Below, piece after piece: positions 966 to 20,354 of a stretch of DNA of 20,485 nucleotides (the first letter of the stretch is position 1; the number at the start of each line of letters is the position of its first letter). The notes beneath the pieces were generated by a model that was given only the letters and a program-made list of their open reading frames with translations, was not told the DNA's origin and ran no database searches. The position numbers and the translations under genes are program-made. Origin of the DNA: a virus; UHGV virus genome UHGV-0139389; one strand, 5' to 3'.

Positions 966-1214
966 ATGTATACTAAAACTCAACTAAAAAACATGGTTAG
1001 CAATGGCTTAATGGATGAAGTCTATAAAGAGTGTAGACGCTACGGGGAAATTAAGGATAAGACTAGTTATGAGTATACCCACACAATAGACTTTAAAACC
1101 AATGAGAAGAGGACTGACCTTGTTACTGTAGTAGTGATTGAGTATAAACGAATTATTTGGACCTTTGAGCTAGTAAAAGGTGAGTGCACAGAGATAGAAT
1201 ATAAAGACGCTTAA
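966..1214 (+). CDS. hypothetical protein, 82 aa
   Basis: ATG directly after cassette RBS. Confidence 0.55.
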   Translation: MYTKTQLKNMVSNGLMDEVYKECRRYGEIKDKTSYEYTHTIDFKTNEKRTDLVTVVVIEYKRIIWTFELVKGECTEIEYKDA

Positions 1215-13562: not shown

Positions 13563-14978
13563 ATGAGCGAATTATTTAAACATGCGCACCTTCATGCAGG
13601 TCGAACTGAAAATGGTGCTGTAAACCATACTTCATCAATGTCTGCTCTTGTAGACTTTTACAAAGCTGCTGGTTCAAGCCGTAGCAATGTAGAAATCTTA
13701 CCAGACTTGTTCTACAAAGCTTTGCGTGAGGATGTTGATGTTGCAGTTCGTATTTTGCTTCATATGCGAGATGTACGAGAAGGTATGGGTGAGCGTAAAG
13801 CCTTCAGAACTGTTTTGCTTCAAGCAATTGAAGATAAAGTTTTAGAGCCTACACAGGTTCTTCGCATTATGGATAAGATTGCAGAACTTGGTCGTTTTGA
13901 TGACTTCAAAATCTTCGTGGGTACTTGTTTCGAGACAGATGCCTTCAAACATTTAGAAGCAGCATTACTAGACCCTGCAACAGCAGGTTTGGCGGCTAAG
14001 TGGTTACCACGAGTCAAACCACGTCATAAGCAGTTTGTAAAACGTTTCTGCAAGTTTGCCAACTTGAGCGAGAAAGAGTACCGCACACTGTTATCTGCAC
14101 TATCTGATACAGTTGAGCAAAAAATCTCTGCTAATGAGTTTGGCAAGATTGACTACAGTAAGGTTCCCTCACTTGCTGCTGCACGTTACCAAAAACTGTT
14201 TAACCGTAAGGATGGAGAACGTTACAAAGCTTACATTGAGTCCTTATCAAAAGGTGAGGCTAAGATTAATGCTGGTGCTGTTTACCCATACGATGTGATT
14301 AAATCTGTCAAGCATGGTAATGCAGATGTTGCTAATGAGCAGTGGAAAGCACTACCAAACTGGATGGCAGAAGGTGAAAACATCTTGTGTATGTCTGATG
14401 TATCAAGTTCAATGTCTTGGGTGAATTTTGGCTCCATTACTGCTCTGGATATTGGTGTATCACTTGCCTTGTATGTAGCAGAACGCAATACAGGTTGCTT
14501 TAAGAATGAGTTGATGGTTTATTCAACAAACCCTCACTTCATCGAACTGAGTGGTGATTTACGAAACCGTCATCGTCAGGTGATGCGACACGTTGAATAT
14601 GGCTCAACTAACTTACAAGCAGCTTTTGACCGCATTCTTGAGACAGGCAAAAGAAACAACTTGACTCAGAAAGATATGCCAAGTAAGCTTATCATCTTCT
14701 CCGATATGGAGTTTAATCAGGTTGATGGGGCTAACGGTCGTACAAACTTTGAAGCAATTCAGAGTAAGTACAAAAAAGCTGGATATGAGATGCCACAACT
14801 GGTATTCTGGTACTTAGCAAACCGTAATGGTACTTGCGAAGTATCTGTTAAGGATAACGGTGTAGCAATGGTATCAGGGTTCTCTCCAGCCACTTTAAAA
14901 GCTCTGCTTGGTGGTGAGAAGTTTGACCCAATCAGTGTAATGCTCAAAGCAGTAATGATTGACCGTTATATCTGGTAA
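13563..14978 (+). CDS. vWA-domain protein with helical N-terminal domain; candidate Ro60/TROVE-like (Rsr-like) RNA-binding protein
   Basis: MIDAS motif ILCMSDVSSSMS (DxSxS) and later FSDME strand = vWA fold; N-terminal ~280 aa helical with GMGERKAFR; resemblance to Ro60 (DVSxSM, FSDEM, MxSGF) is from memory, not a search. Confidence 0.75.
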   Translation: MSELFKHAHLHAGRTENGAVNHTSSMSALVDFYKAAGSSRSNVEILPDLFYKALREDVDVAVRILLHMRDVREGMGERKAFRTVLLQAIEDKVLEPTQVLRIMDKIAELGRFDDFKIFVGTCFETDAFKHLEAALLDPATAGLAAKWLPRVKPRHKQFVKRFCKFANLSEKEYRTLLSALSDTVEQKISANEFGKIDYSKVPSLAAARYQKLFNRKDGERYKAYIESLSKGEAKINAGAVYPYDVIKSVKHGNADVANEQWKALPNWMAEGENILCMSDVSSSMSWVNFGSITALDIGVSLALYVAERNTGCFKNELMVYSTNPHFIELSGDLRNRHRQVMRHVEYGSTNLQAAFDRILETGKRNNLTQKDMPSKLIIFSDMEFNQVDGANGRTNFEAIQSKYKKAGYEMPQLVFWYLANRNGTCEVSVKDNGVAMVSGFSPATLKALLGGEKFDPISVMLKAVMIDRYIW

Positions 14979-15143: not shown

Positions 15144-15220
15144 CTCTGTTTAGCTCAGCTTGGTAGAGCGTTCCGTTTGGGGCGGTAAGGCCGGAGGTTC
15201 AAGTCCTCCAACAGAGACCA
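15144..15220 (+). tRNA. tRNA-Pro (anticodon TGG)
   Basis: Acceptor CTCTGTT/AACAGAG (C1-G72), T-arm GGAGG-TTCAAGT-CCTCC, loop TTTGGGG, CCA encoded. Confidence 0.8.
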
Positions 15221-15227
15221 AATTAAT

Positions 15228-15305
15228 GTTCCAGTAGACAAAATGGTAAAGTCACCACTCTTTCAAAGTGGATATCTGAGGGTTCAAATCCCTTCTGGAA
15301 CGCCA
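15228..15305 (+). tRNA. tRNA-Glu (anticodon TTC)
   Basis: Acceptor GTTCCAG/CTGGAAC, anticodon stem CCACT/AGTGG, T-loop TTCAAAT, CCA. Confidence 0.8.
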
Positions 15306-15312
15306 GTTTTGA

Positions 15313-15385
15313 CAGAAGACCAATTACAGCAAACTTAATCTACTCATCTGAAAGTTAATCGGACAAAGAAGATATTTGGTCTGGT
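15313..15385 (+). ncRNA. Stem-closed spacer RNA element U1 (conserved 5' CAGAAGACC..TACAGCAA, 3' GGTCTGG)
   Basis: 5' AGACCAA pairs 3' TTGGTCT; member of 4-copy family with compensatory changes. Confidence 0.4.
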
Positions 15386-15395
15386 CATTAAGAAT

Positions 15396-15472
15396 TGCGG
15401 GTATAGAGAAAGGGCGTCTCACATGTCTCATTAGCATGGTATCGGCAGGTTCGACTCCTGCACCCGCCTCCA
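15396..15472 (+). tRNA. tRNA with anticodon CAT (Met or Ile-lysidine)
   Basis: T-arm GCAGG-TTCGACT-CCTGC, acceptor 6 bp with 1-72 mismatch, loop CTCATTA, CCA. Confidence 0.7.
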
Positions 15473-15478
15473 AATTTA

Positions 15479-15545
15479 CAGAAGACCGTTTACAGCAATA
15501 TTTATTAAATTTTTAGCGGAAAAATTGAAAGATACGGTCTGGTAA
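15479..15545 (+). ncRNA. Stem-closed spacer RNA element U2
   Basis: 5' AGACCGT pairs 3' ACGGTCT; conserved TACAGCAA after stem. Confidence 0.4.
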
Positions 15546-15555
15546 TACTAAACAT

Positions 15556-15632
15556 GGTTAGGAAGCACATAAGGTATGTGCGGTCGCCTGTTAAGCGAAT
15601 GGCACAGGGTTCGAATCCCTGACTAACCGCCA
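15556..15632 (+). tRNA. tRNA-Asn (anticodon GTT)
   Basis: T-arm CAGGG-TTCGAAT-CCCTG, acceptor GGTTAGG/ACTAACC (one mismatch), loop CTGTTAA, CCA. Confidence 0.75.
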
Positions 15633-15701
15633 AATTTAGGAGAGAAGCGATTGCTCACCGATTTGTAAGGTGCAAGTCCTTAGCCTGAATAGAAATCAAA
15701 T

Positions 15702-15789
15702 GTGTCGTTATCCCGTAGATGGTAGCGGTGGGGACTGTAAATCCCTTGTCATTGAGACTCGGTAGGTTCGACTCCTACACGGCACACCA
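15702..15789 (+). tRNA. tRNA-Tyr (anticodon GTA), long variable arm
   Basis: Acceptor GTGTCGT/ACGGCAC, loop CTGTAAA, T-arm GTAGG-TTCGACT-CCTAC, 85 nt + CCA. Confidence 0.8.
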
Positions 15790-15795
15790 AATAAA

Positions 15796-15873
15796 GGTTA
15801 TGTAGTTTAATCTGGTTAAAATACTCCCCTGTCACGGGAGATGATGAGGGTTCAAATCCCTTCATAACCGCCA
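15796..15873 (+). tRNA. tRNA-Asp (anticodon GTC)
   Basis: Acceptor GGTTATG/CATAACC, stem CTCCC/GGGAG, loop CTGTCAC, CCA. Confidence 0.85.
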
Positions 15874-15934
15874 ATTTTGAGAGGGCTATTTAGCCCCTCC
15901 CTTAAAGAGTTCTTACGAGTATTCTTTAAAGGAG

Positions 15935-16010
15935 CAGAAGACCAAATACAGCAAGAATGTATGAAATTTCAAGCCAATTCAATTTTGAAAATTTAAAACT
16001 TGGTCTGGCT
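15935..16010 (+). ncRNA. Stem-closed spacer RNA element U3
   Basis: 5' AGACCAA pairs 3' TTGGTCT; conserved 5' CAGAAGACCAAATACAGCAA. Confidence 0.4.
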
Positions 16011-16022
16011 CAACAAATTTAC

Positions 16023-16153
16023 AGAAGACCGTTTACAGCAAAACTTAAACAATCTATTTCTCCGGTAAAGAAAAGGCGAGGGTTCGATTCCTTCACTCGG
16101 CAGATGTCGAGTTGGTGTAATGGTAGCACTTAAGATGATAAACAACGGTCTGG
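16023..16153 (+). ncRNA. Candidate Y-RNA-like (YrlA-like) RNA: terminal stem enclosing tRNA-like module without anticodon arm
   Basis: 8-bp stem AGACCGTT(16026-16033)/AACGGTCT(16144-16151); inside: T-arm GAGGG-TTCGATT-CCTTC (16078-16094), capped acceptor-like hairpin ACTCGGC-AGAT-GTCGAGT (16095-16112), D-arm-like GTG-TAATGGTAG-CAC. Confidence 0.45.
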
Positions 16154-16160
16154 TAATTAC

Positions 16161-16292
16161 CTTTGTAGATAAGTTATTAAGCTTACTTGTGAGTATGCGA
16201 CCACAAAGGGTGAATGGGTAAATTCTAGATTTAAACCCAAAAAGGCACATCGCTACAGACCTTAAGCAAGTCTGGGTAGCTTATCTACAAAG
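16161..16292 (+). ncRNA. Structured element closed by perfect 13-bp long-range stem
   Basis: CTTTGTAGATAAG (16161-16173) is exact reverse complement of CTTATCTACAAAG (16280-16292); internal hairpin CAGAC-CTTAAGCAA-GTCTG. Confidence 0.4.
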
Positions 16293-16302
16293 ATAATTTA
16301 AT

Positions 16303-16378
16303 GGAAGTGTAGCAGAATGGTGATGCGGCAGACTTTTAATCTGACAGGCGATGGGTTCGAATCCCTCCACTTCTACCA
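16303..16378 (+). tRNA. tRNA-Lys (anticodon TTT)
   Basis: Acceptor GGAAGTG/CACTTCT (G1-U72), loop CTTTTAA, T-loop TTCGAAT with weak T-stem, CCA. Confidence 0.7.
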
Positions 16379-16382
16379 ATAT

Positions 16383-16459
16383 GGTTCAGTCGCAGATAAG
16401 GTAATGCAAGGGTCTCATAAGCCCTATGAATGTGGGTTCGATTCCCATCTGAACCTCCA
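16383..16459 (+). tRNA. tRNA with anticodon CAT (Met or Ile-lysidine), second copy
   Basis: Acceptor GGTTCAG/CTGAACC, stem AGGGT/GCCCT, loop CTCATAA, T-loop TTCGATT, CCA. Confidence 0.8.
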
Positions 16460-16460
16460 A

Positions 16461-16536
16461 GCTGGTATAGTTAAGAAGGTTATAACACTCCCCTGATAAG
16501 GGAACATCGGTGGTTCGATTCCACCTACCAGTACCA
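16461..16536 (+). tRNA. tRNA-Ile (anticodon GAT)
   Basis: Acceptor GCTGGTA/TACCAGT (G1-U72), T-arm GGTGG-TTCGATT-CCACC, loop CTGATAA, CCA. Confidence 0.8.
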
Positions 16537-16551
16537 ATTTCAATAAAGTTG

Positions 16552-16580
16552 TTGACATTGAGATGTGACTACTTTATAGT
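16552..16580 (+). promoter_or_regulatory. Internal sigma70-like promoter TTGACA-17 nt-TATAGT
   Basis: Counted spacing 17 nt; best consensus match in window; precedes ~200-nt unassigned spacer and tRNA-Arg. Confidence 0.5.
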
Positions 16581-16782
16581 AACCTTAGTTTTCGTTGCGT
16601 AGCGTCTATTTTGCAAATTTAAAATAAATGCAAACGACAATGTTTTTCTGGCAGTAGCTTGATAGGCTAAACACCAGTGAGGTCTTCCAATCCCTCATCA
16701 AAGAATTTGGCGTACTCGCCCACGGTATGATTAATAAGGTGGGCATCTTTAAGGGCTTTCTAAGAGAGTCTTTAAAGATAAT

Positions 16783-16859
16783 GCACCCTTAGTTCAATTG
16801 GATAGAGCAACGGTCTTCTAAATCGTTAGTTACAGGTTCGAATCCTGTAGGGTGTACCA
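16783..16859 (+). tRNA. tRNA-Arg (anticodon TCT)
   Basis: Acceptor GCACCCT/AGGGTGT (G1-U72), D-arm GTTC-AATTGGATA-GAGC, loop CTTCTAA, T-arm ACAGG-TTCGAAT-CCTGT, CCA. Confidence 0.85.
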
Positions 16860-17001
16860 AATAGTTAGCAGATTGCTTAGACGACCTTATCGGGTCTCCG
16901 TGTAAGGAGGTGGTCTGTATCTCATGTTTTCCAGAACATGTAAATAATCTGAGAAGGGGCTTTACAGTGTTGAGATAATACGGTAAGCTTCGAATTATAG
17001 T

Positions 17002-17084
17002 ATGGGACGATGTTAAGACTCTAAGGCATGAGCAACGGCTTCCAACACCGTTTCAAAGGGGTTCAACTCCTCCGTCCCATGCCA
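17002..17084 (+). tRNA. tRNA-like, probable anticodon CCA (Trp), non-canonical D region (80 nt)
   Basis: Exact 7-bp acceptor ATGGGAC/GTCCCAT, T-loop TTCAACT, loop TTCCAAC, CCA encoded; ~7 extra nt between acceptor and anticodon stem. Confidence 0.45.
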
Positions 17085-17097
17085 AAGTCTTATTAGG

Positions 17098-17185
17098 GGT
17101 AGGTAGCGGCTAATGGTAGCCAAACTGTCTTGAAAACAGTTGCCACTGTAGAGATACGGTGAGGGTTCGACTCCTTTACTTACCG
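17098..17185 (+). tRNA. tRNA-Ser (anticodon TGA), long variable arm
   Basis: Acceptor GGTAGGT/ACTTACC, stem ACTGT/ACAGT, loop CTTGAAA, 20-nt variable arm, T-loop TTCGACT; no encoded CCA. Confidence 0.75.
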
Positions 17186-17342
17186 CCTAATAAGATTTAA
17201 AGCCAAGCTTCATTCGGATGTTGCTTTGGTATACCGCGTGTATTGTTGTACACACTGATAAAACACCTAGTAGGTGTCACGGAGAAGAGATAATATCAAG
17301 CTCTCCAAAGGTTCTAGTCACCGGATTAAACAAGACTATGCA

Positions 17343-17363
17343 AAGACCTTTTTAGGTCTTTTT
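17343..17363 (+). terminator. Weak hairpin + short T-tract
   Basis: AAGACC-TTTTTA-GGTCTT then TTT. Confidence 0.3.
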
Positions 17364-17442
17364 AGAGGGCTTCTAAGGTTATTACAGCTTGTTGTGGAAC
17401 CTTGTTGCTTAGGTTCTTAGAAGTTCTCTAAAAAGATTTAAT

Positions 17443-17519
17443 GCACCTATAGCCCAACTGGTAGAGGCAGCAGACTTAGAATCTGCTCAGTGTGAGTTCG
17501 AATCTCTCTAGGTGTACCA
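17443..17519 (+). tRNA. tRNA with anticodon TAG (Leu by anticodon) but short variable loop
   Basis: Acceptor GCACCTA/TAGGTGT (G1-U72), stem GCAGA/TCTGC exact, loop CTTAGAA, 5-nt variable loop, A73, CCA. Confidence 0.7.
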
Positions 17520-17526
17520 AATTAAT

Positions 17527-17602
17527 GCAGGTGTAGCAAAATGGTTATGCGGCTGACTCTTAATCAGTAAGACGATGGGTTCAATTCCCTCCACCTGTAC
17601 CA
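17527..17602 (+). tRNA. tRNA-Lys (anticodon CTT)
   Basis: Acceptor GCAGGTG/CACCTGT (G1-U72), loop CTCTTAA, T-loop TTCAATT, CCA; paralogue of tRNA at 16303. Confidence 0.75.
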
Positions 17603-17608
17603 AACAAT

Positions 17609-17684
17609 GGGGTCATAGTTTATATGGTTAAAATTCGAGTTTTGCAAACTTGGGAACTGAGTTCAATTCTCAGTGACTCCACCA
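17609..17684 (+). tRNA. tRNA-Ala (anticodon TGC)
   Basis: Acceptor GGGGTCA/TGACTCC with G3-U70 wobble (Ala identity element), loop TTTGCAA, T-arm CTGAG-TTCAATT-CTCAG, CCA. Confidence 0.85.
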
Positions 17685-17690
17685 ATTAGT

Positions 17691-17765
17691 GCATCCATAG
17701 TTTAAACGGGAAAATTACAGTCTTCCAAACTGAGGTTGAGGGTTCGATTCCCTCTGGATGCTCCA
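17691..17765 (+). tRNA. tRNA-Gly (anticodon TCC)
   Basis: Acceptor GCATCCA/TGGATGC, loop CTTCCAA, T-arm GAGGG-TTCGATT-CCCTC, CCA. Confidence 0.85.
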
Positions 17766-17772
17766 AATTAAT

Positions 17773-17848
17773 GCTCCTATCGTATAATTGGTTATTACGG
17801 TTGCCTTGTAAGCAACTTATCAGGGTTCGAGTCCTTGTGGGAGCACCA
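17773..17848 (+). tRNA. tRNA-Thr (anticodon TGT)
   Basis: Acceptor GCTCCTA/TGGGAGC, stem GTTGC/GCAAC, loop CTTGTAA, T-loop TTCGAGT, CCA. Confidence 0.85.
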
Positions 17849-17944
17849 ATTCAGAGGTCAAGTGAAAGACCGCTTTGAGTCAACTGAAGACCGTAACAAA
17901 TTCCACGAAGTTGAGTTAGCGGCACAACTTCAGACCTCTTTCAT

Positions 17945-18019
17945 ACTCGCTTAGTTTATATGGTAAAACATCACCCTTACAAGATGAAGAAAAAGGTTCA
18001 AGTCCTTTAGTGAGTACCA
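17945..18019 (+). tRNA. tRNA-Val (anticodon TAC)
   Basis: Acceptor ACTCGCT/AGTGAGT, D-arm GTTT-ATATGGTA-AAAC, loop CTTACAA, T-arm AAAGG-TTCAAGT-CCTTT, CCA. Confidence 0.8.
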
Positions 18020-18020
18020 T

Positions 18021-18098
18021 GTTCCAGTATCCCAATTGGCAGAGGATGCAAGCTCAAACCTTGTATTAGTGACGGTTCGAATCCGTCTTGGAACACCA
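18021..18098 (+). tRNA. tRNA with anticodon CAA (Leu by anticodon) but short variable loop
   Basis: Acceptor GTTCCAG/TTGGAAC, loop CTCAAAC, T-arm GACGG-TTCGAAT-CCGTC, A73, CCA. Confidence 0.7.
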
Positions 18099-18103
18099 AT
18101 TTT

Positions 18104-18179
18104 GCAGGATTAGTTCAAATGGAAAGAGCAACAGTCTACGAAGCTGTTAATAGGGGTTCGAATCCCTTATCCTGCGCCA
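18104..18179 (+). tRNA. tRNA-Arg (anticodon ACG)
   Basis: Acceptor GCAGGAT/ATCCTGC, D-arm GTTC-AAATGGAAA-GAGC, loop CTACGAA, T-arm AGGGG-TTCGAAT-CCCTT, CCA. Confidence 0.85.
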
Positions 18180-18196
18180 GATAAAAAGGTGATACT

Positions 18197-18439
18197 ATGC
18201 AAACATTAACAGTAGTTGAACATGAAAACTGTGAGAGTATTGAGTTTGTCAGGGTCATTGGTGTTGAACACCACATTTTCTTAAAAGTGGGATACTTATG
18301 TGACCCCGCTAGAGTAGAAAGATTTATACGTGATTGTTTTGGTGGTAGACAGCTGAAGAGTGTTATTTTTGAGACAGTTTTACCAGAAGGTTTAGAAACG
18401 AATAATAACATTTACCTCCTTACGAGGATTAGACAATGA
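18197..18439 (+). CDS. hypothetical protein, 80 aa, embedded in tRNA array
   Basis: ATG at 18197 with AAGGTG RBS; ATGA overlap with next ORF. Confidence 0.55.
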   Translation: MQTLTVVEHENCESIEFVRVIGVEHHIFLKVGYLCDPARVERFIRDCFGGRQLKSVIFETVLPEGLETNNNIYLLTRIRQ

Positions 18440-18993
18440 GATACTTAAAGTATGCTTCATGGATTTTCTTAGCTTTGTTAGAGCCATTTGCAGCAATCTT
18501 AGCAGTTATCTTAGCACCTTTTGTAGTTCCATTCTACAGTGAGAAGAAAGGACACTTACCTTTCGGGTTCAGATGGATGGAGACTTATGACAACCCAATT
18601 GATGGTGATGCAGGTCATATCAAACGATGGGCTAAGATTAGAAAGATTGGTAAGCTTGGTGTCTACATGCAGAGAGTTGGATGGCTCTGGAGAAACAAAG
18701 CTTATAACTTCTCTTACCATGTATTAGGAAGAGATGTAAAAGATGTTACTAAGTGGAAAGGTAATATCAACGTAAGTTCTAACCCTGAAGATAATCAGAC
18801 TGGTTATCTCCTAATGTGGAACAGTAATGCTTGGGGATTATTCGCTTTTGTGCCGTCAATCAAAATCTTTGGTAAACAATTTTACTGGAGAATTTATGTT
18901 GGGTGGAAACTTAAAAGTGTTGTCCCAGAAGAAAGAGCATTTTCAAGGGAAAGAGTTATGTTGGCATTCTTTATTCATCCACTAAGAAAGTAA
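18436..18993 (+). CDS. hypothetical membrane protein, 185 aa (N-terminal TM helix)
   Basis: ATG at 18436, GAGGA RBS; hydrophobic N-terminus WIFLALLEPFAAILAVILAPFVVPF. Confidence 0.6.
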   Translation: MRYLKYASWIFLALLEPFAAILAVILAPFVVPFYSEKKGHLPFGFRWMETYDNPIDGDAGHIKRWAKIRKIGKLGVYMQRVGWLWRNKAYNFSYHVLGRDVKDVTKWKGNINVSSNPEDNQTGYLLMWNSNAWGLFAFVPSIKIFGKQFYWRIYVGWKLKSVVPEERAFSRERVMLAFFIHPLRK

Positions 18994-19001
18994 AGATTTA
19001 A

Positions 19002-19077
19002 AGGGGATTAGTTTACAAGGTTAAAACCTCGGTCTTTGAAATCGAAGAAGTTGGTTCAATTCCAACATCCCCCGCCA
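19002..19077 (+). tRNA. tRNA-Gln (anticodon TTG)
   Basis: Acceptor with A1/C72 mismatch then GGGGAT/ATCCCC, loop CTTTGAA, T-arm GTTGG-TTCAATT-CCAAC, CCA. Confidence 0.75.
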
Positions 19078-19079
19078 AT

Positions 19080-19158
19080 GCTCCATTACTCCAATTGGCA
19101 GAGAGGCCAGACTTAAAATCTGTGTTATGTATCGGTTCGAATCCGATATGGAGTACCA
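19080..19158 (+). tRNA. tRNA with anticodon TAA (Leu by anticodon) but short variable loop
   Basis: Acceptor GCTCCAT/ATGGAGT (G1-U72), loop CTTAAAA, T-arm ATCGG-TTCGAAT-CCGAT, A73, CCA; D-arm paralogous to tRNAs at 17443 and 18021. Confidence 0.7.
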
Positions 19159-19163
19159 AATTT

Positions 19164-19239
19164 AGCGGTATAGCATAACTGGCAATGCAGCAGTCTCTGA
19201 AGCTGTCCTATTAAGGTTCAAATCCTTATGCCGCTGCCA
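19164..19239 (+). tRNA. tRNA-Gln (anticodon CTG)
   Basis: Acceptor AGCGGTA/TGCCGCT, D-arm GCAT-AACTGGCA-ATGC, loop CTCTGAA, T-arm TAAGG-TTCAAAT-CCTTA, CCA. Confidence 0.7.
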
Positions 19240-19270
19240 CTTCTAAGGATTCTTACGAGAGTCCTTAAAT

Positions 19271-19346
19271 GTGGCCTTATCATAAATGGTAATGACCCAT
19301 GCTGTGAACATGGTCTATACGGGTTCAAATCCCGTAGGTCACCCCA
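19271..19346 (+). tRNA. tRNA-His (anticodon GTG)
   Basis: Acceptor GTGGCCT/AGGTCAC, stem CCATG/CATGG exact, loop CTGTGAA, C73, CCA. Confidence 0.85.
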
Positions 19347-19352
19347 ATTTAT

Positions 19353-19428
19353 AGTCCAAGTAGCTTATATGGTTAAAGCGCGTGTCTGAAAAACATGAGA
19401 AGAGGGTTCAAATCCCACTGGACTACCA
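19353..19428 (+). tRNA. tRNA-Phe (anticodon GAA), boundaries +/-2 nt
   Basis: D-arm GCTT-ATATGGTTA-AAGC, stem CGTGT/ACATG, loop CTGAAAA, T-loop TTCAAAT; acceptor register ambiguous. Confidence 0.65.
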
Positions 19429-19444
19429 ATTTCAAAGGTGCTTA

Positions 19445-20179
19445 ATGAAAGAGATGACAGAACAAGGTAAGGAGATTTTCAATCTCTTAAAAACCGGTAA
19501 AGGGTTTTCTAACCCCCTTATTACTGGTGCAGCAGTTCTCGGTGGAACCGTAGCTGCCTCTACATCACTTGTAAGCTCTATTAGCTCTGTATCAGACCCT
19601 ACAGTAAAGGATAAGCTTGTTGCTGCTGGACTTACAACAGTTCTGCTTAACAGCTTTACCACGAGTCTGACAAGCACTACATCAACTACCAAAACACTAA
19701 CAGATTACGGTCAAAAGTCCATTGATGAGTTTTCATCACGTATGCAGGTAGCAAAAGGTTACTCTAATGTTATGGGTGCAGCAGGTGAACAAGTTGGCTG
19801 TACACCATTTAGTGGTATTATGGGTGTTGCTACAGAGTATGGTCAAAAAGCTATTGATACGATTAACAGTGCACTAGATAGTGTTAATGGTGTGTTAAGT
19901 GACTTACAAGATGCTATTGACAAAGGTCTTGATACTATTTCTGATTTAGCTGAGCAAGCTGTTAGTAAGATTAATGAAGGTATTTCAAAAATTACAGCTT
20001 ATGCAGATGAAGTTGTGCAGATGATTGAAGAAGAAGCTGCTCTTATTGCAGAGTACCTTAAAACGAATATCAATGGGTTCTTAGCAGGTATCTTACCAGA
20101 CTGGTTTGATGATGCTTGTAAAACTGGTGTAATTGACACTATTGCAACACCAGAAATGAAGAACGCATTACAGAAATAA
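19445..20179 (+). CDS. hypothetical protein, 244 aa, Ser/Thr-rich segment (start trimmed from 19382)
   Basis: ORF-track start 19382 lies inside tRNA-Phe; first ATG after the tRNA is 19445 with AGGTG upstream. Confidence 0.6.
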   Translation: MKEMTEQGKEIFNLLKTGKGFSNPLITGAAVLGGTVAASTSLVSSISSVSDPTVKDKLVAAGLTTVLLNSFTTSLTSTTSTTKTLTDYGQKSIDEFSSRMQVAKGYSNVMGAAGEQVGCTPFSGIMGVATEYGQKAIDTINSALDSVNGVLSDLQDAIDKGLDTISDLAEQAVSKINEGISKITAYADEVVQMIEEEAALIAEYLKTNINGFLAGILPDWFDDACKTGVIDTIATPEMKNALQK

Positions 20180-20181
20180 AT

Positions 20182-20274
20182 GGAAGATTAACCCTAAAAG
20201 GTAAGGGAGCAGTTTGCTAAACTGCTAGTAGCTGAGAAATCGGTGTACCAGTTCAAGTCTGGTATCTTCCTCCA
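20182..20274 (+). tRNA. tRNA-Ser (anticodon GCT), long variable arm
   Basis: Exact acceptor GGAAGAT/ATCTTCC, stem GCAGT/ACTGC, loop TTGCTAA, ~21-nt variable arm, T-arm ACCAG-TTCAAGT-CTGGT, CCA. Confidence 0.8.
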
Positions 20275-20278
20275 ATTT

Positions 20279-20354
20279 GAATCCGTGACAGAAACGGCTA
20301 TGTGCCTGTCTGCAAAACAGGTTTATAAGGGTTCGAGTCCCTTCGGATTCTCCA
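20279..20354 (+). tRNA. tRNA-Cys (anticodon GCA)
   Basis: Exact acceptor GAATCCG/CGGATTC, stem CCTGT/ACAGG, loop CTGCAAA, T-loop TTCGAGT, CCA. Confidence 0.85.

Follow-up and report, generated by a model that had tools for sequence, protein, structure and literature searches.

What is encoded, if anything, in the conserved and apparently empty interval that interrupts the tRNA array of FelixO1-like phages? The window analyzed here, 20,485 nucleotides (nt) of the virus genome UHGV-0139389, is part of a myovirus of this group (Felixounavirus), and its segment 16300-17100 shows 98-99% identity to many Escherichia and Salmonella Felixounavirus genomes. ARAGORN detects 26 tRNA genes in 15144-20354, 24 of them confirmed by Rfam at the gathering threshold, and between tRNA-Ile and tRNA-Arg(UCU) there remain 246 nt in which neither ARAGORN nor Rfam calls a tRNA, a transfer-messenger RNA (tmRNA) or a curated RNA family, and in which the open reading frames (ORFs) are short, none of them conserved. 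An earlier note, made from the letters of the sequence, had described this interval as an internal promoter followed by about 200 nt of transcribed spacer, free of tRNAs and ORFs, that could encode a small RNA or a leader. The lack of a tRNA and of a conserved ORF holds, but 'spacer' is the wrong label, because the stretch belongs to a large unannotated family of RNAs. These RNAs resemble the mRNA-like part of bacterial tmRNA and carry a tag template, yet have no tRNA-like domain (TLD); instead, they start with a segment complementary to the tag region of the tmRNA of the host. We tentatively propose that the phage RNA docks on the tmRNA of the host, whose tag template it would replace by its own.

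A tag template without a tRNA-like domain

The clearest indication of what this RNA might be comes from a reading frame of ten codons that has no in-frame start codon upstream and no Shine-Dalgarno sequence. The frame starts with GCA, immediately after an A-rich linker (coordinates of all these features are collected in Table 1), and the U at -5 and the A at -4 of the linker occupy the positions of U85 and A86 before the resume codon of the E. coli tmRNA, such that AUAAAU-GCA in the phage RNA stands against AUAGUC-GCA in the host molecule, and the phage peptide against the E. coli tag ANDENYALAA. From the antisense duplex discussed below to the GCA, the linker spans 15 nt in the window and a median of 10 nt in the family, compared to the 11 nt that separate pseudoknot 1 from G90 in the E. 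coli tmRNA. Exactly ten codons precede the stop in 109 of the 110 distinct family sequences, and the single exception has 11, via insertion of a codon in frame. The frame exists in 31 distinct DNA versions among these 110 sequences, with 18 extra base states at third codon positions and 6 and 7 at positions 1 and 2, respectively; the peptide ANDDVVLMAA is encoded by eight different DNA versions, and TAA, TAG and TGA are all used as stops. The remaining two reading frames over the tag are of variable length and are not conserved. The short forms of the RNA, those of the Ounavirinae and of phage-plasmids, keep the selected frame as well. To judge from this pattern of substitutions, the tag frame is under selection at the level of the peptide. 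The tags end in LAVA here, in LMAA in other lineages and in ALAA in E. coli; by the recognition rules of ClpX and SspB, the SspB-binding part (AAND..Y/F) would be retained and the ClpX-binding end altered.

The resemblance to tmRNA extends downstream of the tag. The 196 nt from 16587 to 16782 fold at -58.8 kcal/mol (z = -4.14 against dinucleotide shuffles), and covariation was tested in an alignment of 76 sequences for a specified model that consists of a hairpin with the tag stop in its loop followed by two H-type pseudoknots. Under this model 91.5% of the cells are paired, versus 29-43% when the partners are slid by 1-3 columns; changes on both sides are seen in 18 of the 27 pairs, the observed covariation is reached by no shuffle, and the same stems covary within the Ounavirinae alone. 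The tag stop, UGA at 16660-16662, lies in the loop of a hairpin resembling helix 5 of tmRNA, one pair of which is G-C in 49 sequences and A-U in 27. In pseudoknot A, where CCAA of the loop pairs with UUGG to form stem 2, both partners have changed in seven of nine pairs, and the paired cells amount to 98% and 92%. The closing pair of stem 1 in pseudoknot B is paired throughout (C-G in 53 sequences, G-C in 15, U-A in 8), its stem 2 is variable in length and covaries, and the loop AUUAAUAA (16730-16737) is conserved. Stem 2 of pseudoknot B is the GCCCAC/GUGGGC pairing that the earlier note had taken for a local hairpin: the pairing is real, but as one stem of a pseudoknot. A different second stem for pseudoknot B, UGUG/CACA, was rejected with 15.8% of the cells paired, the covariation scan giving CGYAC/GURUG. 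With regard to this anatomy, its conservation and its covariation, we consider the case established.

The last structural element is the 3' hairpin, homologous to the long hairpin AAGAGCAUU...AGUGCUCUU of a relative (L109) and of siphoviruses, in which the apical insert is hypervariable. In siphovirus relatives (L008, L101, L114, L119 and others) the base of this hairpin, CACAACAGGUAAGAGCAUU ... AGUGCUCUUUCCGUUGUG, is conserved, the apical inserts of 40-230 nt are mutually unrelated, some of them being tRNA-like with a T-arm, and the hairpin is sometimes tandemly repeated; the counterpart of the insert in the window is just the 3-nt loop.

Is this RNA then a tmRNA? It has the start-less tag frame at a resume codon and the stop codon in a helix-5-like hairpin, followed by pseudoknots, but there is no acceptor stem, G3:U70 pair, T-arm, CCA, P2 helix or pseudoknot 1: no T-arm-like motif is found within 16587-16782, and the 3' hairpin has neither a G:U at its third pair nor a CCA. 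The Rfam scan that had been suggested as a check yields no family at threshold, and its tmRNA matches, of 15.7 and 12 bits against a gathering threshold of 47, include only model positions 56-294 of 374; the relatives reach at most 17 bits with the tmRNA model, and the scores with permuted tmRNA are 17.8-31 bits against a threshold of 47. ARAGORN calls no tmRNA. Neither does the RNA match a two-piece tmRNA, in which acceptor and coding pieces are encoded together, as no acceptor piece was found in the window, and no acceptor strand can precede the RNA because the promoter directly abuts the conserved 5' motif in five lineages. A hidden tRNA-like domain, built from the GAGCAUU/AGUGCUC motifs and the siphovirus T-arms, was considered and kept only as an improbable rival (see below): the intervening region is hypervariable and mostly without a T-arm, no G3:U70 is present, and the window shows no such element. 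As far as can be judged from sequence comparison, the RNA appears to have arisen from the mRNA-like portion of a tmRNA without qualifying as a tmRNA itself. Having no tRNA-like domain, it therefore cannot be charged or enter the ribosome alone.

Complementarity to host tmRNA and predicted expression of the RNA

So how could a tag be translated from an RNA that has no tRNA-like domain? The paradox would be resolved if that domain were supplied by the host tmRNA, and the 5' part of the phage RNA points in this direction. Folded by themselves, the 43 nt that precede the resume codon form no significant structure (z = -0.23), and they are complementary to the host tmRNA instead; a weak alignment with the minus strand of E. 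coli ssrA was also obtained for the family profile. Complementarity was computed throughout against the E. coli tmRNA (363 nt), whose nt 77-106, the predicted target of the 5' domain in the window, span the end of pseudoknot 1, the linker with U85 and A86, the resume codon G90-C91 and codons 2-6. With RNAduplex, the 5' domain of the window alone forms 24 base pairs (bp) with the tmRNA at -27.3 kcal/mol, dinucleotide shuffles of this domain giving a mean of -20.6 (standard deviation 2.2) and being as good in 5 of 1000 cases. For the long-form relatives, the duplex with tmRNA 54-109 has an energy of -40 to -49 kcal/mol, which none of 300 shuffles matched. In 72 of the 76 relatives the best duplex site on the whole tmRNA is this same region, and in three of the four exceptions it is the overlapping 54-130. 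Furthermore, all 76 prefer the host tag region over the tag region of the RNA itself, with medians of -25.1 versus -15.8 kcal/mol. The perfect blocks match host-specific bases, namely ACGAAAACUA (codons 3-6), GUCGC (-3 to +2) and CCGCAAA, and AAAC, which the host and phage tags have in common, is mostly unpaired. The sequences of divergent lineages, GCGACUUUGCGG, GCGAUUAUGCGG and GCGUCUAUUUUGC, are all complementary to the same stretch of the host molecule. The predicted complementarity of this conserved segment to host tmRNA appears to go beyond chance, and the two molecules are predicted to pair in vivo.

Two further observations concern the 5' domain. The motif AGUUUUCGU...GCGACUUUGCGG was also examined as a homolog of the D-loop/P2a strand of tmRNA, and this assignment was dropped when the segment turned out to be tmRNA nt 54-109 in reverse complement. 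Inside the ORF 966-1214, at approximately 1033-1044 (plus strand), 12 nt are perfectly complementary to 16598-16609; this could be a second antisense target, but is probably a coincidence, because about 0.07 such matches are expected by chance.

The RNA appears to be expressed from a promoter of its own. The sigma-70-type site TTGACA-17-TATAGT, previously noted as the best promoter match, is indeed the sole 11/12 match in the whole window, all other sites having 10/12 or less. Promoter-like sites in the window do not exceed those in shuffles (15 versus 12.8 and 38 versus 41.4), so that a consensus match alone is weak evidence; the evidential weight of this promoter comes from its conservation across four genera of Ounavirinae. 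Felixounavirus, Suspvirus, Mooglevirus and Kolesnikvirus all retain the TTGACA, the 17-nt spacing and a TA...T -10 box (TATAGT, TAAGAT, TAATCT), and in Kolesnikvirus the spacer and the upstream sequence are otherwise unrelated. Unrelated siphoviruses carry an analogous TTGACA-17-TAGATT immediately 5' of the same RNA. The position of the promoter predicts a transcription start at A16587. At the other end, the 16-bp hairpin stops 3 nt short of tRNA-Arg, and since the 5' ends of tRNAs are cut by RNase P, this enzyme should also make the 3' end of the RNA. We infer a putative independent small-RNA gene of about 196 nt, 16587-16782, with predicted transcription and predicted ends. The small RNA envisaged in the earlier note is favored by the conserved promoter, by the compensatory changes in two thirds of the model pairs and by the recurrence of the element as an autonomous module in numerous unrelated families of phages; the leader envisaged as its alternative fits poorly with the form of the element, which is unchanged whichever tRNA follows, or without any.

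In about 95 Felixounavirus genomes (E9, Bas63 and others), an insertion of 90 bp is found at 16584/16585 (L001 1784-1876), between the -10 box and the 5' motif of the RNA, with imperfect terminal inverted repeats TTCAGCATATGTA / TACATATTCTGAA. The insertion is derived, as it is absent from Susp-, Moogle- and Kolesnikvirus, and its 59-nt core is found also in E. coli phages of about 52 kb (SKA49, Bp10).

Table 1. Coordinates of the interval, its promoter and the segments of the predicted RNA
Feature	Position	Strand	Sequence or pairing	Basis
Interval studied, 246 nt	between tRNA-Ile (16461-16536) and tRNA-Arg(UCU) (16783-16859)			ARAGORN, Rfam
Sigma-70-type promoter	16552-16580	+	-35 TTGACA 16552-16557, 17-nt spacer, -10 TATAGT 16575-16580	consensus match, conservation
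5' antisense domain, 29 nt	16586-16614	+	UAGUUUUCGUUGCGUAGCGUCUAUUUUGC	complementary to E. coli tmRNA nt 77-106
Antisense block	16586-16597		predicted pairing with tmRNA C95-A106 (codons 2-6)	
Antisense block	16602-16604		predicted pairing with tmRNA C89-C91 (-1 base and first two bases of the resume codon)	
Antisense block	16606-16609		predicted pairing with tmRNA A84-G87 (including U85, A86)	
Antisense block	16610-16614		predicted pairing with tmRNA G77-A81	
A-rich single-stranded linker	16615-16629	+	AAAUUUAAAAUAAAU, ending AUAAAU	sequence versus E. coli ssrA
Tag frame	16630-16662	+	GCA AAC GAC AAU GUU UUU CUG GCA GUA GCU UGA = ANDNVFLAVA*	conserved frame
Helix-5-like hairpin	16648-16677	+	outer CUGG 16648-16651/CCAG 16674-16677; inner UAGCU 16655-16659/GGCUA 16665-16669	covariation, fold
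Pseudoknot A	16678-16710	+	stem 1 UGAGG 16678-16682/CCUCA 16693-16697; stem 2 CCAA 16687-16690/UUGG 16707-16710	covariation
Pseudoknot B	16711-16744	+	stem 1 CGUAC 16711-16715/GUAUG 16725-16729; stem 2 GCCCAC 16718-16723/GUGGGC 16739-16744	covariation
3' hairpin, 16 bp, 3-nt loop	16745-16779	+	AUCUUUAAGGGCUUUC-UAA-GAGAGUCUUUAAAGAU	-17.6 kcal/mol, z = -5.27
3' tail	16780-16782	+	AAU	expected RNase P cut at 16782/16783, 5' end of tRNA-Arg

Distribution of the family and neighboring features

How widespread is this RNA? Conservation in related phages, which the earlier note had named as a check, is found together with the covarying structure described above, and it reaches far beyond close relatives. 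A sensitive BLAST search with the 246 nt gave matches in 596 phage records, and outside the Ounavirinae the central 95-125 nt match at 71-87% identity in Ackermannviridae (Kuttervirus, Taipeivirus), N4-like Schitoviridae (Pollock, St11Ph5), several siphovirus genera of 46-60 kb that infect Klebsiella and E. coli, and an Aeromonas phage. Among 5426 E. coli genomes, 347 contain the element, in lambdoid prophages, where it is located between the antiterminator Q and the holin, or in phage-plasmids of about 110 kb; the chromosomal ssrA was not matched in this search. A pattern scan of IMG/VR added 120 loci. The matches in a scan of genome contigs with the tag pattern were almost all due to chance, one of 120, in a Pseudocitrobacter prophage, being a true member. 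The element always resides in unannotated intergenic DNA, mostly near tRNA genes, with some copies away from them, and the lineages that carry it share no neighboring protein gene. In the literature covered, with subscription journals outside this coverage, we found nothing on this RNA family, whether under its tags, its diagnostic sequences, tmRNA-like RNAs of phages, antisense RNAs to tmRNA or Felixounavirus transcriptomics, and no RNA-seq data for these phages came to light. With no Rfam family to represent it, the family is apparently new, although an earlier description may exist elsewhere.

Several features in the vicinity of the element, in the window and in its relatives, deserve mention in their own right. 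In the window, 17002-17084 (plus strand) is an unannotated tRNA-like gene whose acceptor stem, AUGGGAC/GUCCCAU, consists of 7 perfect bp and continues into G-CCA. This gene also has a T-arm, and the loop of its anticodon arm, CUUCCAACA, is 9 nt long; it resembles a tRNA-Gly(UCC) with two extra bases in the loop, receives no ARAGORN call and, in Rfam, matches only tRNA-Sec with 16.9 bits. The corresponding slot in the Kolesnikvirus Pistou is occupied by a normal tRNA-Gly(UCC). A conserved block, UAAGGAGGUGGUCUGUAUCUC, is located 3' of the tRNA that follows the tag RNA, at 16903-16923 (plus strand) of the window and at approximately 1330-1350 in the Erwinia phage Pistou (L012). In the window it comprises a Shine-Dalgarno-like site and an ORF of 7 codons, in Pistou there is no AUG, and the block may represent another small RNA. 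The 430-nt gap between tRNA-Asp and tRNA-Lys contains, outside the called tRNAs, a T-arm-like motif GAGGG-UUCGAUU-CCUUC (16078-16094, plus strand), possibly left over from a tRNA or part of some tRNA-like element. The gene that heads the tRNA array (13563-14978, plus strand) codes for a protein of 471 amino acids (aa) in which the domains DUF2828 and DUF7788 are recognized (PHROG 850, 'RNA-binding protein') and which has no sequence match in the PDB; a relation to RNA-binding proteins of the Ro60 type, and hence to Y-RNA-like hairpins, is conceivable. In the Kuttervirus SeSz-1 (L005, 800-2900), about 2.1 kb around the element are devoid of annotated genes and contain further tRNA-like modules that ARAGORN does not call, one of them ending in ...AACGGCUCCA.

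A docking hypothesis, its rivals and known systems

An intriguing scenario for the function of this RNA follows the layout of the molecule. The phage RNA would be transcribed from its own promoter near 16587 and its 3' end released by RNase P before tRNA-Arg. The 5' segment would then dock it on the host tmRNA, which would supply the alanine, the tRNA-like domain and SmpB. The resulting duplex would mask the frame-setting bases, the resume codon and the tag template of the host and would occupy the usual place of pseudoknot 1, and the phage resume codon, 10-15 nt 3' of the duplex, would be read in place of that of the host. The tag added to rescued proteins would then be that of the phage (...LAVA) instead of ...ALAA. 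That the RNA docks in this manner and replaces the tag template, with the pairing and decoding that this implies, we put forward as a tentative hypothesis, somewhat short of an even chance. A touch more tentative still is the notion of a virus-supplied trans template, from which each ribosome rescued in the course of infection would append A-ANDNVFLAVA in place of the ClpXP degron. Trans-translation on such a template is, to our knowledge, a decoding mode that has not been described.

Several considerations weigh against this hypothesis. The antisense energy of the short forms is only moderately above that of shuffles, as seen in the window and even more so in L048, L053 and L109, where about 10% of the shuffles are as good; the 72 of 76 relatives that target the same site are not independent observations, being members of one family. 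When the RNA in its full length was scanned coarsely for duplexes with the E. coli tmRNA, nothing exceeded shuffles, as spurious GC-rich duplexes masked the true A/U-rich one; the signal emerged with the 5' domain taken by itself. The Salmonella tmRNA probably differs by one base in the best block. Furthermore, most of the relatives were collected with a pattern that fixes tag codons 1-3 and Leu7; the ten that were taken from BLAST hits (L004-L013), and hence were not selected by pattern, have the same tag frame. We also know of no ribosome that resumes on a template tethered to tmRNA by base pairing alone, and the ribosome could unwind the duplex and read the host tag.

So what else could this RNA be? 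Plain antisense inhibition or destruction of tmRNA is the main rival of docking. Here the RNA would bind the mRNA-like region of tmRNA, blocking tagging or triggering cleavage by RNase III, its own tag-like frame would never be translated, and the tmRNA-like body would be only a scaffold or a protein decoy. This possibility draws on the same complementarity as the docking hypothesis and on the lack of a tRNA-like domain, and it has a converse precedent in the TLD-only tmRNA fragment of mycobacteriophage DS6A: a molecule similar to this fragment strongly inhibits tmRNA, perhaps via titration of SmpB (PMC4131195). We nevertheless regard it as rather unlikely, since it leaves unexplained both the coding constraint (the nearly invariant ten codons, the in-frame insertion, the synonymous third positions and the retention of a stop) and the conserved AUAAAU-GCA context, and an inhibitor would need no resume signal of its own at the canonical distance from a helix. 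Weaker than this rival is the possibility of a split phage tmRNA, similar to the two-piece tmRNAs that exist in bacteria (Rfam RF04321), in which the RNA would be the coding piece and a tRNA-like RNA of the phage the acceptor. The T-arm-bearing tRNA-like modules beside the tag module in some siphovirus relatives are compatible with such an arrangement, as are the Kuttervirus modules, one of which ends in ...CCA, and the odd tRNA-like gene at 17002-17084. It is, however, improbable, considering that the RNA of the window has no acceptor-stem strand, that no partner for its 5' domain turned up next to a T-arm when all of the window was scanned, that no G3:U70 pair is present in any of the tRNA-like modules examined, that the inserts which sometimes hold T-arms are hypervariable and often absent, that the short forms without modules keep the tag frame, and that the permuted-tmRNA scores given above are below the threshold.

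Two further readings were considered. The element might be a decaying fragment of a captured tmRNA, or a transcribed spacer or leader that carries processing sites for tRNA-Arg, in keeping with its position inside the tRNA array, its expected excision from the same precursor and its scores below every Rfam threshold; but strong covariation, a dedicated and conserved promoter, preservation of the frame across deeply diverged phage families and the occurrence of the element away from tRNA genes make this very improbable. Finally, the minus strand of 16606-16746 can be read as a protein of 46 aa, which is annotated as hypothetical in phages E9 and Bas63 and is intact in Felixounavirus and Suspvirus. 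This protein is barely credible as the product of the interval, given that the ORF is truncated in Mooglevirus and disrupted by stops and frameshifts in Kolesnikvirus, L109 and L048, where the features of the plus-strand RNA are intact.

If docking with replacement of the template were to be borne out, phages of enterobacteria would routinely manipulate trans-translation, they would provide a natural tool to rewrite the tag on stalled proteins, and one could put to the test whether resumption is possible on a template that is tethered by base pairing alone. FelixO1-like phages serve in typing and therapy, and the RNA family also accounts for the conserved 'empty' interval of their tRNA arrays, as well as for intergenic DNA that lacks annotation in Ackermannviridae, N4-like phages, several siphovirus genera, lambdoid prophages and phage-plasmids.

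How does this RNA compare with known systems? The tmRNA, which is nearly universal in bacteria, is viewed as a closed system that consists of a single molecule or of two pieces of one gene. The phage RNA is like tmRNA (SsrA, RF00023) in the GCA resume codon, preceded by an A-rich linker that has U at -5 and A at -4, in the start-less AN[DE]...[LA]A tag of the same length as the E. coli tag, and in the stop codon within a helix-5-like hairpin loop succeeded by consecutive H-type pseudoknots. It differs in size (about 196 nt versus 363 nt), in the anti-tmRNA segment that stands in place of pseudoknot 1, and in the absence of the P2 helix and of all the acceptor features, from the acceptor stem with G3:U70 to the T-arm and the CCA. 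The two-piece, circularly permuted tmRNAs of alpha-proteobacteria, cyanobacteria and some beta-proteobacteria (RF04321 and related families) likewise distribute the coding and acceptor functions between separate base-paired chains, as predicted for the phage case. However, their chains come from one permuted gene and pair via the P1/P2 helices, whereas the predicted partner of the phage RNA is an intact host tmRNA, paired at the tag template, which this pairing would silence.

Parallels exist among phage RNAs as well. The anti-sRNAs AgvB and AsxR of enterohemorrhagic E. coli prophages, simple sponges for Hfq-dependent small RNAs, are similarly borne by phages and have a conserved 5' part complementary to a host regulatory RNA; unlike these sponges, the present RNA is predicted to target tmRNA and to carry a replacement template. 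The tRNA cluster of phage T4 contains small stable RNAs, species 1 and 2 (rnaC/rnaD), which, in a likeness drawn by description only, are also non-tRNA RNAs within a phage tRNA array that are matured by tRNA processing. The tmRNA gene census of 2014 lists phage tmRNAs in mycobacteriophages and Bacillus phage G only, along with the TLD-only fragment of DS6A, and reports none in an enterobacterial phage (PMC4131195). The tmRNAs of mycobacteriophages (Bxz1, Cali, Catera and others) and of phage G, as well as the DS6A fragment, are, like the element described here, phage genes that intervene in trans-translation, in our case by prediction; but they possess the tRNA-like domain, and DS6A little else, whereas the present family is a tag template without that domain.

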